Notes: generated by a model from the sequence alone, not told the origin. 32,000 bases of DNA from Fastidiosibacter lacustris (GCF_003428155.1 NZ_QLIR01000004.1:60001-92000), one strand, 5' to 3'. Counted from the stretch's first letter, positions 7,855-11,614 are shown. Translations and numbers: made by a program.

Positions 7855-9744
7855 CTAAGGAGTTTCATTTTTTGCATAATTGTACATTTTACCGACTTTC
7901 GTTTGCATGATGGTACTATAGTCTGAAGCATATATTCCATCTTTTCGCTCATTCTTACTCCATTGACCGATAATTGTCTTTAATTGTTGTTGTCCATTTG
8001 GCGTGTTTGTCCATATTTCAGCAATAGGAGTATCAAACCACTTGATTGCATAGTTTTTAAATATCCAAGAATTTTTAAGGTTATCCTTTAACCACTCTTG
8101 CCACCGTGAGTGTTTTATCCATCGTTGTCCCTCTATTGTGGTAATCCAGATACTACCAGCTTTTGAAGATAGAAAATTAGCAAACTCTGAATCGAAATAC
8201 CAGTTTGAGAAGTCATGGTTATCCATGATGATAACATAATCAAAAATTAAACGCTGTAATTCCGCACTTTGCTTTATTGCTTGTAAACCTACATCTTTAT
8301 TTAACCAATTGATGAAAATTGGTTTCATTCTACCATTCCTATCCGATTGCCATAGTTTGCCTTGTGGAGTTTGTAGCCACTTAATTCCAGTTTCAGTGGC
8401 TAACCAGACACCCCCCACATAAGATGATAAAAACTGATCTAAGTCGGAATCGTACCACCAGCCAGATATGTGATTAGCATTTTCTACTTTTTGAAGAAAA
8501 ACTTTCTCCATTTTGTTTGCTATATCATGTGCTTGATTGAGATTCTCTTTATGAATAAGAGATTTTGCAATGGTATAACCATTTTTGTTTCCTTGGAAAA
8601 AATGTAAGTAATCCTGACCTTCAGAAAACTCTAACCACTTAAGTCCAGATGGCGTTAATAACCATTTAATTCCAGATTCTGTATACAGCCAGGTATTTCC
8701 TGCTTTGGTGCTTAATAGTTTATCTATAGGGGATTGAAAACTGGTAAAAGAATAAGCAATACCTTGAAGGATATTTGCCGCCATAACAGAAATAGTCAGT
8801 ACAGCAGGTATTGTTAATACATATTTAAATCCATTTTCATTAGTGGGAGTGCTTTTCTCTGGGAGCGGTTCTTTCGCCTTTGGGTTATTATTGGCTCCGG
8901 CATTAGCAACCGTCTCTTCTGTCTTCACGGAATCAATGTTGCGACCAAGAACAATAACGATCGCAGTTAGTGTTGTATAGGCAAAAAGACTCGATATGCC
9001 GGGCCAGCTAAAATTATTTGTTAAGGTTAGTATTTTGTTATCTGAAAGGGAATTTGCTGCAAGTAACATTGCTTGCTCACCTTGAGGACTAAGCACCCAA
9101 GCTTGTGCATTGTCTGTGCTCAACCATTGACGAACAATGGATGAATCCGACTGAAGCCAATTTTTCCCTTCATTTGATGCTAACCAGGTTTTACCTTTAT
9201 TTGACTTTAACCATAATAAACCTTGATCACTTGATAGCAACTCACTCACGTTTTCTTCACGGTAAATGGCATTTTGGATTTTGTCGTAAAATTTTTTATC
9301 TATGATTTGTTCATACGGATCATTAAATTGACTTGTAATATTTAGGTTATTTTCAATGTCAGCTTGTTGTAAGTTTTTAGGATTGGCTATTACAACTTCA
9401 ATAACCGTTTGCTGTGAATGTATAGAAGGAATGGTTATGATATTTTCAGTAACTTGTTGTGGATTTGTAGATTGAGAGGTTCTGATATCTTCAGAGTCTA
9501 TGTGCTGTGGAGTTAGAGGTGAGACGTTTAGCTCGTTTTCAGCCACTGGTTGCTCTAGATTAATAGAGTTCTCTAACTCGTTTTCAATTTGAATATTGGG
9601 TTGTTCCTCTGTTTGTGCATAGCTTAGGTTAACGTTACTTATGAATACAGCAAGAAGATAAACGATAATTTTTTTAGAAATCACTTTTGATTGAGTTTTA
9701 TTGATTTGAACATTACTTCGTCGTGTAATATTTTCTAATTCCAT
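7855..9744 (-). CDS. Trp-rich nonapeptide-repeat secreted/membrane protein, paralog A (unknown family)
   Basis: Strong RBS (AAGGAG, 9 nt before the ATG at 9744). Signal peptide ending NLSYA|Q at residue 43, followed by a 125-aa E/Q/N-rich linker. Contains four blocks of tandem [ST]xxGxxW[LMF] repeats and two central hydrophobic segments (SSLFAYTTLTAIVIVL and YVLTIPAVLTISVMAANIL). Collinear with the 513-aa neighbour. Confidence 0.8.
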   Translation of the reverse strand: MELENITRRSNVQINKTQSKVISKKIIVYLLAVFISNVNLSYAQTEEQPNIQIENELENSINLEQPVAENELNVSPLTPQHIDSEDIRTSQSTNPQQVTENIITIPSIHSQQTVIEVVIANPKNLQQADIENNLNITSQFNDPYEQIIDKKFYDKIQNAIYREENVSELLSSDQGLLWLKSNKGKTWLASNEGKNWLQSDSSIVRQWLSTDNAQAWVLSPQGEQAMLLAANSLSDNKILTLTNNFSWPGISSLFAYTTLTAIVIVLGRNIDSVKTEETVANAGANNNPKAKEPLPEKSTPTNENGFKYVLTIPAVLTISVMAANILQGIAYSFTSFQSPIDKLLSTKAGNTWLYTESGIKWLLTPSGLKWLEFSEGQDYLHFFQGNKNGYTIAKSLIHKENLNQAHDIANKMEKVFLQKVENANHISGWWYDSDLDQFLSSYVGGVWLATETGIKWLQTPQGKLWQSDRNGRMKPIFINWLNKDVGLQAIKQSAELQRLIFDYVIIMDNHDFSNWYFDSEFANFLSSKAGSIWITTIEGQRWIKHSRWQEWLKDNLKNSWIFKNYAIKWFDTPIAEIWTNTPNGQQQLKTIIGQWSKNERKDGIYASDYSTIMQTKVGKMYNYAKNETP

Positions 9745-10020
9745 ATTTATTTACTCCTTAAGTTTAATCAACCAATTCCTTTCCGATAGTATTCAAAACA
9801 TGTTATTACTCATCGCAAATCTGTAAAACTATCTGGGACAAGTTAGTTAACTTCATTATGAACACAAGTTGATTATCAAAACCAAATGATAAAAAATCAC
9901 TGGTTTTTGTTGTATAAGAGTATAAATATGAAACAACTATTGAATGTTTTTAAAGATCTTGATTTATATGTGAAACAGACAGCATGACGTAGAGAATGCA
10001 CGAAATGTTATTGTTGAACA

Positions 10021-10062
10021 TTAACATAGGCAATCCATTGCCTATGTTAAATGTATTTTTTT
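10021..10062. terminator. perfect 14-bp-arm palindrome followed by T7 on the plus strand
   Basis: TTAACATAGGCAAT-cc-ATTGCCTATGTTAA (10021-10050), then atgta and TTTTTTT (10056-10062). Lies 23 nt downstream of the stop of the minus-strand gene 10073..11614, but the U-tract is on the plus-strand side. Confidence 0.4.
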
Positions 10063-10072
10063 ACTGTTTACT

Positions 10073-11614
10073 TTATTGCAGCTGAGTATTATAGGTTTTT
10101 CCTGCTAGAGTACGCTGCAACACAACACAATCAGAACTGTAAACTTTCTGTATGAAGTGACGATTATCTTCTTGTCCACACCCTTTACTGTTCAACAAAT
10201 CTTGAAATTGTTTTTTGCCAGCATCCTTTTGCACCCATTCTTTAGCAGCACTGCTATTAAGCCATGTTATAGCAGTGTTTTCCCATAGCCACGTATTATA
10301 AGCATTCTGGGTTAGCCATTCTCCCCATTTACTTGTTTTCATCCATTGTTGACCTACTTCTGTTGCTAGCCATACACCACCTGCTTTTGAGAGTATAAAC
10401 TTAGAAAAGTCTGAGTGAGCATACCAGTTTTTAGAATCGCTATTATCCATTATATTCACATAACCAAGGATAAAATCTTGCAAGATACTTTCATTTTTAA
10501 TCGATTGTAAGCCTGCATTTGTATTGAGCCAATTGATAAAAACTTTACGCATTTCACCTTGCTCATTAACTTGCCATTCTTTACCTTCATAACTTTTTAG
10601 CCACTCTATACCTGTATCACTAGCTAGCCATAAACCACCTAAATAAGATGATAAGAATTGATCTAAATCAGAAGCATACCAATACCCTGCTATCGTATTT
10701 GCATTTTTGACCTTTTCAAGTAACACTTTTTCCATTTTTTTTGCTACTTGATCGATTGCATTAAGGTTTTTGCTATGAATAATATCCCTTGCAATACTAT
10801 GGCCATTTTTATTTCCTTCCAAAAAGCTAAGCCTGTCTTGCCCTTCTGAAGATTCTAACCATTTAAGACCGCTAGGACTTAATAGCCATTGAACACCTGA
10901 TTCTGTATACAGCCAAGCTTGCCCTGCTTTGGTAATTAATACTTTATCTAAAGGAGATTGAAAACTAGTAGAAGAGTTAATAGCCCATTGCCCTATATTT
11001 GCAGTTGCCAGCCCAACAATAGCTAGAGCTGTTGTAGTGACAGCTCTGTTTGCTACGTTTTTGTAACCGACTATGCCTGCGCCTATAACTACTGCATGTA
11101 CACCAATATTTGTAAAACTTGGCCATTCAAGACGATTGTGATAGGTCAATTGTTTATTGTCTGAAAGAGACTGGACTTTTAAAAAGAGTGTTTCTTCTCC
11201 TTCAGGAGTTAATGCCCAGCTTTTTGCATCTTCAGTATTAAGCCACTCATTTACAATAGACGAGTCTGATCGAAACCAGTTTTGTCCAACGTGACTTGTT
11301 AGCCAGTTTTTTCCTTCTGTTGACCTTAACCATAAAAAGCCTTTATCGCTTGATAATAAGTTATCCAATGTGTTCTTATGGTAAGACTCTTGTGTTATTT
11401 TTTTATCAAGATCGCGATCTAACGCTGTATTATGCAACGTATAATTTGTTGGGATCTGGATATCTGTATTGTCAGTTATATTTTCCGCATAGCTTACATT
11501 GGTAACACCTACCAGCCCTGCTAGCAAACAAATAAACGAGGTTTTTATAGAATATTTCAATTGATTTTTCTCCTTTTTAGTTTCAAGGCTTTGTTTTATA
11601 CATTTTATTGTCAT
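10073..11614 (-). CDS. Trp-rich nonapeptide-repeat secreted/membrane protein, paralog B (unknown family)
   Basis: Strong RBS (AAGGAG, 8 nt before the ATG at 11614). Signal peptide ending NVSYA|E at residue 43. I count 24 Trp in 513 aa. Repeat runs include LWL RSTEGKNWL TSHVGQNWF, AWL YTESGVQWL LSPSGLKWL, LWL ASDTGIEWL KSYEGKEWQ and VWL ATEVGQQWM KTSKWGEWL TQNAYNTWL WENTAITWL. Has a central hydrophobic pair (IGVHAVVIGAGIVGY and TTTALAIVGLATANIG). Confidence 0.8.
   Translation of the reverse strand: MTIKCIKQSLETKKEKNQLKYSIKTSFICLLAGLVGVTNVSYAENITDNTDIQIPTNYTLHNTALDRDLDKKITQESYHKNTLDNLLSSDKGFLWLRSTEGKNWLTSHVGQNWFRSDSSIVNEWLNTEDAKSWALTPEGEETLFLKVQSLSDNKQLTYHNRLEWPSFTNIGVHAVVIGAGIVGYKNVANRAVTTTALAIVGLATANIGQWAINSSTSFQSPLDKVLITKAGQAWLYTESGVQWLLSPSGLKWLESSEGQDRLSFLEGNKNGHSIARDIIHSKNLNAIDQVAKKMEKVLLEKVKNANTIAGYWYASDLDQFLSSYLGGLWLASDTGIEWLKSYEGKEWQVNEQGEMRKVFINWLNTNAGLQSIKNESILQDFILGYVNIMDNSDSKNWYAHSDFSKFILSKAGGVWLATEVGQQWMKTSKWGEWLTQNAYNTWLWENTAITWLNSSAAKEWVQKDAGKKQFQDLLNSKGCGQEDNRHFIQKVYSSDCVVLQRTLAGKTYNTQLQ

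Follow-up and report, generated by a model that had tools for sequence, protein, structure and literature searches.

Two paralogous tryptophan-rich genes

The window analysed here is a stretch of 32,000 nucleotides of chromosomal DNA from Fastidiosibacter lacustris (GCF_003428155.1, NZ_QLIR01000004.1:60001-92000), whose minus strand carries, one after the other, two genes for tryptophan-rich repeat proteins. The open reading frame (ORF) at 10073..11614 encodes a product of 513 amino acids (aa) that is 100% identical to P0001 / WP_116963583.1, and the ORF at 7855..9744 encodes one of 629 aa that equals WP_116963582.1; both products are annotated as "hypothetical protein". The two proteins are clearly paralogous. 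BLASTP aligns them at 46% identity over 480 aa (E=3e-148), and different repeat blocks also match one another off-register (E=6e-7). Relative to the 513-aa protein, the 629-aa protein has an additional low-complexity linker and an insertion of ~40 residues in the loop of a hydrophobic hairpin. The 513-aa protein has orthologues of 501-521 aa in Cysteiniphilum, with 52-56% identity. An AAGGAG ribosome-binding site lies on the minus strand 8 nt before each ATG, at 11623..11628 for the 513-aa gene and at 9754..9759 for the 629-aa gene. Our data thus agree with the original prediction, made by a model from the DNA alone, that this is a co-oriented pair of paralogues preceded by AAGGAG sites; the collinear stretches it quoted, and the SYA at residues 41-43, are present in both proteins.

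Both proteins contain 24 tryptophans (4.7% of 513 aa and 3.8% of 629 aa), and each has 12 Trp-Trp pairs spaced nine residues apart. Shuffled sequences yielded ~1 such pair on average and none of 20000 shuffles reached 12, so the periodicity is real and far beyond chance, and a fortuitous pattern was rejected. Across 98 units from six family members, the repeated nonapeptide begins with Ser or Thr (86%), carries Gly at position 4 (64%; Ala in 16%), invariably has Trp at position 7 (100%) and mostly Leu at position 8 (66%), giving the consensus [ST]-x-x-G-x-x-W-L-x.

When both proteins were aligned with four relatives, a common plan emerged: a signal, a linker, a first module (M1), two hydrophobic segments with a basic loop, three further modules (M2, M3, M4) and a tail with Cys. 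The four modules are homologous, all six pairwise comparisons matching in hhalign with probabilities of 88-97% and E values of 3e-6 to 3e-11. The core of a module is a lead-in, [YF]-x-S-[DP]-L-D-x-[FLV]-L-[ST], and then three or more nonapeptides. Identity between the paralogues is 78% in M2 and 67% in M3, relative to 46% overall; signal, tail and hairpin (24%) are the least conserved parts. The layout originally predicted (signal, block 1, hydrophobic pair, blocks 2-4) is the one that the alignment returns, just as the count of 24 Trp in the 513-aa protein and the units of ~9 residues agree with our count and consensus.

All parts of the two proteins are encoded on the minus strand. In the 513-aa protein, M1 (residues 78-135; 11210..11383) consists of the lead-in YHKNTLDNLLS and five Trp units of 9 or 11 residues, M2 (residues 214-262; 10829..10975), which is the best-conserved part, of TSFQSPLDKVLI and three units, M3 (residues 311-349; 10568..10684) of YWYASDLDQFLS and three units, and M4 (residues 397-462; 10229..10426) of WYAHSDFSKFIL and six units. 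Together with the C-terminal tail, M4 makes up a portable domain that is present also at the N-terminus of another Cysteiniphilum protein, P0009. The alignment places the corresponding modules of the 629-aa protein at residues 161-218 (M1; 9091..9264), 332-380 (M2; 8605..8751), 429-467 (M3; 8344..8460) and 515-580 (M4; 8005..8202). M1 of the 629-aa protein contains the sole DNA tandem repeat of the region (9162-9213; 27 bp x 1.9 copies, 80% match), which codes for two adjacent nonapeptides and hints at a recent duplication or conversion of units.

Residues 1-43 of either protein probably constitute a Sec signal peptide, judging by its residue layout. In the 513-aa protein (11486..11614), inspection and a hydrophobic peak identify a Lys-rich n-region and a hydrophobic core that lead to VSYA, followed by E; in the 629-aa protein (9616..9744), inspection finds the region ending in LSYA, followed by Q. 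By eye, all six family members show the n/h/c layout with small residues at -3 and -1 (SYA, GYS) and next to them an acidic or polar residue, and the Cysteiniphilum orthologues have it in a short canonical form, MRKKS..LSGLMGM.SIGYS|. In the 629-aa protein the signal is followed by a Gln/Asn/Glu/Ile-rich linker of 107 residues (residues 44-150; 9295..9615), which the alignment shows to be missing in the 513-aa type.

The central hydrophobic segments

Two hydrophobic segments follow the first repeat block in all members of the family. In the 629-aa protein (residues 247-331; 8752..9006) they are clearly hydrophobic and separated by a Lys/Glu/Pro-rich loop of ~40 residues, making a transmembrane (TM) hairpin probable. 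In the 513-aa protein (residues 164-213; 10976..11125) they are rich in Gly and Ala and joined by the short basic loop YKNVANR, and a TM hairpin is marginal. The Kyte-Doolittle maxima over 19 residues are 1.78/1.91 for the 629-aa protein, 1.39/1.28 for the 513-aa protein and 1.0-1.4 for the Cysteiniphilum proteins, so that only the 629-aa protein reaches the classical TM threshold. Simple Hessa sums amount to +1.2/+2.7 kcal/mol for the 629-aa protein and +6.0/+5.1 kcal/mol for the 513-aa protein, the latter and the Cysteiniphilum proteins together spanning +5 to +8 kcal/mol. A TM hairpin had originally been predicted for both proteins; this appears right for the 629-aa protein, whereas the 513-aa protein and its orthologues are borderline.

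The way in which this part of the family has diverged nevertheless speaks for a hairpin whose loop is cytoplasmic. This loop is basic and varies freely in length (9, 13, ~40 and ~70 residues, the longest in the metagenomic fragment P0012), both hydrophobic helices being kept throughout, and the hairpin, for all its low identity between the paralogues, has retained its hydrophobicity. Sequence that drifts while its hydrophobicity is kept is the behaviour of a membrane anchor. Elsewhere, a metagenomic protein of 640 aa (P0020) contains two nonapeptide arrays, each with a strongly hydrophobic segment cluster after it, so that the repeat again appears to be membrane-tethered.

Predicted fold of the repeats

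AlphaFold2 was run on the full 513-aa protein and, with a slightly broader alignment, on residues 216-513, the alignments comprising 6-8 sequences only. The mean predicted local distance difference test score (pLDDT) of the full protein was 59, with repeat blocks at 75-88 (M1 76-85, with a helix per unit); residues 216-513 reached a mean pLDDT of 71.7 (M3 76-88) and a predicted template modelling score of 0.66. Over both runs the repeat blocks lie at 75-90. In either run the nonapeptide is modelled as a single two-turn helix of 6-8 residues that begins directly past the Ser/Thr. Ser and Thr are classic helix N-cap residues, and the small residues at positions 3-4 and the Trp-Leu at positions 7-8 are in i/i+4 spacing on one helical face. 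The prevalence of Ser/Thr at position 1 and the i/i+4 pattern therefore agree, independently of the models, with one helix per unit. Since Trp and Leu share a helical face in the models, they would make up a packing core rather than an exposed aromatic array, and the conserved residues are more likely to be the core of stacked, very short helices. This prediction runs counter to the earlier suggestion that a regular array of exposed aromatics binds a glycan or another ligand.

Foldseek searches with both models against PDB, and also against BFVD, gave no match below E=0.01. The top matches, to beta-catenin, MO25, PUF proteins and YibA, were not significant (best E 0.016-0.12, TM-score <=0.39). 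As a predicted stack of short helices, the window proteins do resemble ARM/HEAT, PUF, MO25, YibA and TPR/Sel1 proteins. However, alpha-solenoids such as ARM/HEAT, PUF, MO25 and TPR/Sel1 use 2-3 helices in 33-47 residues, in contrast to the single two-turn helix of nine residues predicted here. With no Pfam match and no significant superposition either, membership of the ARM/HEAT/TPR/Sel1 alpha-solenoids was rejected.

Relation to RTX repeats

RTX repeats (PF00353 HemolysinCabind; CyaA, HlyA, serralysins) also have a period of nine residues, and share with the present nonapeptide the Gly at position 4 and an aliphatic residue, Leu, at position 8. The units of the window proteins might accordingly be seen as diverged RTX nonapeptides that form a calcium-binding beta-roll, the more so because distant long [ST]PAGQDWL[LF] arrays align in register with the RTX domain of CyaA (AGxDxL, E=2e-12) and with NCBIfam RTX models, and one fungal array scores 25.2 bits with Pfam HemolysinCabind. 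The window proteins themselves, however, returned zero RTX matches at E<=1 in Pfam and NCBIfam. In the 98 units, S/T-x takes the place of G-G at positions 1-2 (Ser/Thr in 86% at position 1, mixed residues at position 2), and position 6 (Q/E/L/N/K) shows no preference for Asp, which means that the Ca2+ site is absent. The units begin with S/T-(P/E/D), as suits a helix N-cap, and AlphaFold2 predicted helices at a pLDDT of ~80 in two runs. Furthermore, the proteins bear a Sec signal instead of a C-terminal type I secretion signal, and their units are grouped by 3-6 within larger modules rather than in long arrays.

We consider an RTX origin of the window repeats extremely improbable and have rejected membership of PF00353: the proteins give no profile match and have no GGxGxD turn, and the lack of a beta-roll is predicted. 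As for the distant arrays, their RTX match may reflect common ancestry or merely the shared period, Gly 4 and Leu 8; the array of P0018, which is without Asp at position 6, had no match to RTX proteins in PDB. The dismissal of RTX in the original prediction is thus sound for the window proteins, which fail every RTX test, but too sweeping for the distant arrays that align with CyaA.

Relatives and spread of the nonapeptide

Scans of both proteins against Pfam and NCBIfam gave no family match, a Lambda_Bor line in Pfam (E=0.16, over the signal region) being dismissed as chance. A profile search of PDB sequences had 0 matches at E<=10, text searches of the literature brought up no relevant description of a Trp nonapeptide repeat, and the genome papers on Fastidiosibacter and Cysteiniphilum leave pili, fimbriae and Trp-rich genes unmentioned. 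That no family could be named for these proteins has therefore withstood Pfam, NCBIfam, PDB sequences and Foldseek, all of them without a characterised match.

A word-indexed search of 5.8 billion proteins retrieved six sequences, namely the two paralogues, a metagenomic fragment with 82% identity and three Cysteiniphilum proteins. With an HMMER profile run exhaustively against 1.84 billion cluster representatives, 80 proteins were retrieved at E<=1e-3, only 3 of which (P0012, P0007 and P0009) have more than the nonapeptide in common with the family. Full-length relatives occur in Fastidiosibacter and Cysteiniphilum only. Among partial relatives, P0012 is a fragment of a 629-like protein, and P0007, which is encoded after an OmpR-type regulator on a plasmid-like contig, has a signal and five modules without a hairpin.

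Two Cysteiniphilum proteins of 766-795 aa, P0009 and P0085, are encoded directly after a T2SSF platform gene and before Dot/Icm type IVB secretion genes (L008 9989-12301 in C. litorale; L001 20982-end; L003 20800-end). P0009 of C. litorale comprises a signal, a domain that shares ~50% identity with M4 and the tail, a single hydrophobic segment and, C-terminally, an ElaD/SseL-like region. The match of that region to the CE clan is below threshold (25.6 bits against a cut-off of 27 bits), and His, Asp, Gln and NDCG motifs can be recognized by eye; the assignment as a CE-clan protease rests on these two observations, and a search of P0009 against PDB sequences found no match. P0009 and P0085 are probably, as far as their sequences tell, fusions of a Trp-module domain to a eukaryote-type deubiquitinase-like domain.

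The remaining matches of the profile search are tandem [ST]xxGxxWL arrays of 10-50 copies in otherwise unrelated architectures. Such arrays lie C-terminal to S8 peptidases (P0008; P0013 from Candidatus Schekmanbacteria) and N-terminal to HECT domains (P0023, P0025), constitute the whole C-terminal repeat domain of fungal NACHT/NPHP3_N receptors (P0010 from Rhizopogon, P0021), and occur in AT-rich proteins of viral or protist appearance. In the NACHT and HECT fusions the nonapeptide takes the position of a sensor or binding domain that is usual for LRR, WD40, TPR or ANK repeats. In two Bifidobacterium proteins of ~2500 aa (P0026, P0030), the last 330 residues include ~25 tandem nonapeptides of the TPEGHAWLQ type, located between Listeria-Bacteroides repeats and a sortase-type anchor (VAATG-hydrophobic-RRRRRD), where a wall-spanning stalk is usually found. 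In the array-bearing proteins, no model of either Pfam or NCBIfam covers the nonapeptide. By its sequence distribution, [ST]xxGxxWL is a widespread, uncatalogued building block, placed where binding or spacer repeats normally sit. Hence the repeat is uncatalogued, as originally predicted, but it is not unique to these genes, given the arrays in S8, NACHT, HECT and Bifidobacterium proteins.

Genomic context and synteny

Upstream of the 513-aa gene and in the same orientation lies a chaperone-usher operon of the CS1/TcfC type (class 5, alternate; 11776..18314, minus), identified by Pfam and by orthology to operons of Cysteiniphilum. Proceeding upstream from the 513-aa gene, it encodes two pilin-like subunits (186 and 173 aa), a tip-adhesin-like protein (346 aa), the usher (825 aa), the major pilin (177 aa) and the chaperone (282 aa). 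The usher has the Pfam domains TcfC and CooC_C, the chaperone has a weak PapD_N match, and the pilin-like neighbours end in F-strand motifs, ...ITFTASF and ...TVSVNF. The gap between the operon and the 513-aa gene is 161 bp, within which a pattern scan found no terminator-like site. On the far side, the 629-aa gene adjoins the T2SSF platform gene of a convergent type IVb pilus assembly cluster (88..7755, plus) that encodes a TcpQ-like protein, a secretin, PilO/PilP-like proteins, an ATPase and the platform protein.

This arrangement recurs in Cysteiniphilum. In C. halobium (L001), a Trp-rich gene with its own AAGGAG begins 22 bp past the last pilin-like gene; in C. sp. 6C5/19S12-1 (L003/L005), it begins 21 bp past the orthologous operon; and in C. 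sp. 19S12-1 the complete operon is present a second time, on a different contig (L004), with a Trp-rich gene 24 bp past it, after which the contig ends before a next gene is visible. The scan of genome contigs returned Cysteiniphilum loci only and not the F. lacustris locus itself, which is perhaps masked. Directly downstream of the last pilin gene and in the same orientation, the Trp-rich gene is found at all four examinable loci of the two genera (the window, L001, L003/L005 and L004). At L001 and L003/L005, the next genes on that strand are those of the type IVb cluster. In Fastidiosibacter this cluster is inverted relative to Cysteiniphilum (window 88-7755 versus L001 12257-20891; the bundlin-like pilin gene is not in the window), and the Trp genes remain co-oriented with the usher operon. 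Our data thus support the view that the Trp-rich gene travels with the chaperone-usher operon and stays when the type IVb cluster is inverted; that the genes follow a fimbrial operon, as had been noted from the window alone, now extends to four loci with a CS1/TcfC-type operon.

Several other features of the region deserve mention. The ORF at 88-705 matches only the C-terminal 198 residues of a 275-aa Cysteiniphilum protein, so the gene is probably cut by the window start. At the start of a C. litorale contig (L008 3-392), a truncated ORF that precedes the bundlin-like pilin gene ends with two P0007-like modules (…NGYVQNSQLNQFLGSSAGVEWL…); a different protein of the same module type thus occupies, in this species, the place ahead of the type IVb pilin gene. 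Ahead of the chaperone gene, the Cysteiniphilum loci have an atypical 232-aa regulator (Trans_reg_C) in place of the Asn/Lys-rich, 272-aa product of the window (18455-19273, minus), which lacks a signal peptide, matches nothing in Pfam and is without a counterpart at those loci. Between the paralogues, 23 nt past the stop codon of the 513-aa gene, is a palindrome (10021..10050) with a perfect stem of 13 bp (TTAACATAGGCAAT-GGAT/CCAT-…). Its minus strand is without a T-run, the terminator scan recognizes it in plus orientation only, in which no gene ends at this place; it is possibly a partial terminator between the two genes, and a promoter-like site lies ahead of the 629-aa gene. Scans for Rfam families, tRNAs and tandem repeats found nothing bearing on the genes, only a tRNA-Met and the 27-bp repeat. 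Beyond the pilus block the window carries housekeeping genes (murJ, asnS, tRNA-Met and rimP-nusA-infB-rbfA). The guanine-cytosine (GC) content is 0.29-0.37 in the pilus/fimbria block (1-19300) and 0.36-0.41 (about 0.40) in the housekeeping block (20000-32000). The low value would agree with an acquired island; the window revealed no integrase, and its sole tRNA gene (tRNA-Met, 23033-23109) is away from the block boundary.

A proposed role at the fimbrial assembly site

We propose that the window proteins are envelope proteins exported by Sec and belong to a small family confined to Fastidiosibacteraceae, each consisting of four copies of one ancestral module, a lead-in helix motif plus nonapeptides. 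Within a unit, the Ser/Thr would cap a two-turn helix, and the small residues at positions 3-4 and the Trp-Leu at positions 7-8 would pack against the neighbouring helices. The outcome would be a short alpha-solenoid with the variable positions 2, 5, 6 and 9 facing outward. The central helix pair with its basic loop would probably serve as a hairpin tether in the inner membrane, a topology that would place both M1 and M2-M4 in the periplasm. There the proteins may provide a binding scaffold for the CS1/TcfC-type fimbriae, holding or positioning subunits, the usher or the envelope at the site of assembly. The fimbrial part of this model derives from the Trp-rich gene behaving as the last cistron of the usher operon in Cysteiniphilum and being co-oriented with it in Fastidiosibacter. 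The idea of a binding scaffold is in keeping with the positions that the nonapeptide occupies elsewhere, which are those of binding or spacer domains (the C-termini of NACHT and S8 proteins, the N-terminus of HECT proteins and the stalk before a sortase anchor). Taken as a whole, a membrane-tethered periplasmic helical-repeat scaffold accessory to CS1/TcfC-type fimbriae is a tentative reading, to which we give somewhat less than an even chance.

Described class 5 operons encode only a chaperone, a major subunit, an usher and a tip subunit. The operon next to the window genes resembles these (CS1 cooBACD, CFA/I, Tcf, cable pilus) in its TcfC/CooC_C usher and CS1-type tip subunit, with the Trp gene as an apparent added last cistron in Cysteiniphilum. 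We know of no class 5 fimbrial component that is an all-alpha, signal-bearing repeat protein with a hydrophobic hairpin. The products are not chaperone-usher pilins themselves: they are predicted to be all-alpha, and their C-termini (...GKTYNTQLQ and ...MYNYAKNETP) are without an F-strand motif. Lacking the Ig-like pilin fold, the Trp-rich protein cannot be an usher substrate.

Several observations weigh against the proposed scaffold. The Gly/Ala-rich segments of the 513-aa protein and of all Cysteiniphilum orthologues are sub-threshold for TM helices, AlphaFold2 gives a pLDDT <50 over the hydrophobic pair of the 513-aa protein, and its models were built on alignments of 6-8 sequences. An hmmscan of four hairpin regions against Pfam returned 0 families at E<=10, so that a glycine-zipper 2TM domain (PF05433 / PF13488 group), one candidate for the hairpin, had to be dropped. 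The module homologue P0007 is hairpin-less and its contig is without pilus genes. A more distant operon of C. litorale (L007, usher 48% identical) has neither the subunit of the 186-aa type nor the Trp gene. Close homologues of the usher are found in Fastidiosibacter and Cysteiniphilum only, and as the usher operon is confined to the same two genera as the Trp-rich gene, their co-occurrence has little phylogenetic independence. The low-GC block contains several surface and secretion systems, and adjacency within it may for that reason be hitch-hiking. Our searches found no homologue of known function, and chaperone-usher systems are not known to need a component of this kind.

Rival interpretations

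The proteins might instead be directed at a host, leaving the cell or reaching its surface with the hairpin buried until it inserts into a target membrane, in the manner of Inc or translocator proteins, and with the modules binding a host ligand. The lifestyle would fit, as an obligate endosymbiont of the ciliate Euplotes and F. lacustris are essentially identical (PMC9837558). In relatives, genes for Dot/Icm type IVB secretion stand beside the locus, P0009 joins the M4-tail domain to the sub-threshold ElaD/SseL-like (CE-clan) domain, typically a eukaryote-directed activity, and P0007, which combines a signal with five modules and is without a hairpin, has the appearance of a soluble exported protein. 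In the 513-aa type, besides, the hairpin is too weakly hydrophobic for a confident stop-transfer. Like chlamydial Inc proteins and SlyB / Rick_17kDa_Anti, it has adjacent hydrophobic helices joined by a short loop, Gly/Ala-rich with small-xxx-small spacing; unlike these hairpins, it belongs to proteins with a Sec signal instead of a type III secretion signal and with large folded domains on either side, and has no Pfam match at E<=10. A Sec signal is atypical of both Dot/Icm and type III secretion substrates, and no route across the outer membrane can be identified for an all-alpha protein of 500 aa. The TM-grade segments of the 629-aa protein should stop in the inner membrane, where a basic loop of variable length would suit the cytoplasmic side. 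Between the genera the Trp-rich protein is 52% identical, diverging faster than machinery proteins (73-83%), as might an effector, yet slower than pilins (39-45%); a divergence that lies between the two does not discriminate among the readings. On balance, we regard a host-directed function as unlikely.

Proximity to the type IVb pilus invites two further possibilities, that the proteins form a scaffold for its secretin or platform, in a role like that of FimV or GspAB, or that they are pilus-dependent exported factors like TcpF or CofJ. In Cysteiniphilum both systems flank the gene, which shares its strand with the bundlin-like pilin gene 570-750 bp further downstream; the C. litorale pilin gene comes just after the end of another protein with the same modules; and the platform gene is followed by the M4-tail domain protein P0009 and adjoined, in the window, by the 629-aa gene. 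The genes tcpF and cofJ sit directly after the platform gene in their operons, and the window proteins share with their products a Sec signal and a location beside a TcpQ/bundlin-type cluster. However, the Trp genes of Fastidiosibacter are on the strand opposite to, and convergent with, the type IVb cluster, having stayed with the usher operon. The close spacing (21-24 bp) couples the gene to that operon and not to the pilin gene, and the second usher operon (L004) has a Trp gene of its own, although the contig end hides what follows it. Neither sequence nor fold resembles TcpF/CofJ or FimV, and the orientation and the hydrophobic hairpin led us to reject cargo of the TcpF/CofJ type; a role in the type IVb pilus is, all told, quite improbable. 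The proteins could finally be general envelope components that hitch-hike on an island, their modules binding peptidoglycan, lipopolysaccharide (LPS) or the like with no relation to fimbriae. Such an origin would account for the low GC of 1-19 kb (0.29-0.37 versus ~0.40 in the housekeeping part) and for the stacking of several surface systems there, and it is in line with the Bifidobacterium repeat filling a wall-spanning stalk before a sortase-type anchor and with P0007, which has no pilus context. Against it, two genera and a duplicated operon have kept gene order and spacing although the proteins have diverged by 40-60% and the neighbouring cluster has been inverted, and we doubt that mere hitch-hiking is the explanation.

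Conclusions

Having failed the tests for RTX, ARM/HEAT/TPR, pilin, glycine-zipper and TcpF-like membership, the family cannot be filed under any described one. In terms of its predicted architecture, it would still be of a known kind, that of the alpha-helical repeat proteins, with an unusually short unit of one helix. A more far-reaching interpretation is that [ST]xxGxxWL defines a new, kingdom-spanning class in which the 9-residue unit is a capped two-turn helix, serving as a binding or spacer module and recruited here as a membrane-tethered periplasmic component of class 5 fimbriae. We think this rather unlikely in its entirety; if true, it would represent a type of solenoid without a solved representative.

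For the specialist, the interest lies in a repeat class found in bacteria, fungi and probable giant viruses but missing from the catalogues, and in a possible additional component of the alternate chaperone-usher pathway. It is tempered by the shallow alignments behind the structural models, the very narrow distribution of the full-length family and the inferred role, and if the proteins prove to have nothing to do with fimbriae, what is left is a hypothetical protein family restricted to one lineage and modest in interest. If our interpretation is true, a repeat family with an unusually short, one-helix unit is missing from Pfam and NCBIfam, and its description would annotate dozens of regions now left blank, in surface proteins of bacteria, immune receptors of fungi and proteins of giant viruses or protists. 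The alternate chaperone-usher pathway, regarded as a minimal four-gene system, would gain an unexpected non-pilin component. The Fastidiosibacteraceae are a little-studied, Francisella-related group that includes protist endosymbionts and emerging pathogens of humans and corals, and the Trp-rich proteins would provide a handle on their surface structures.

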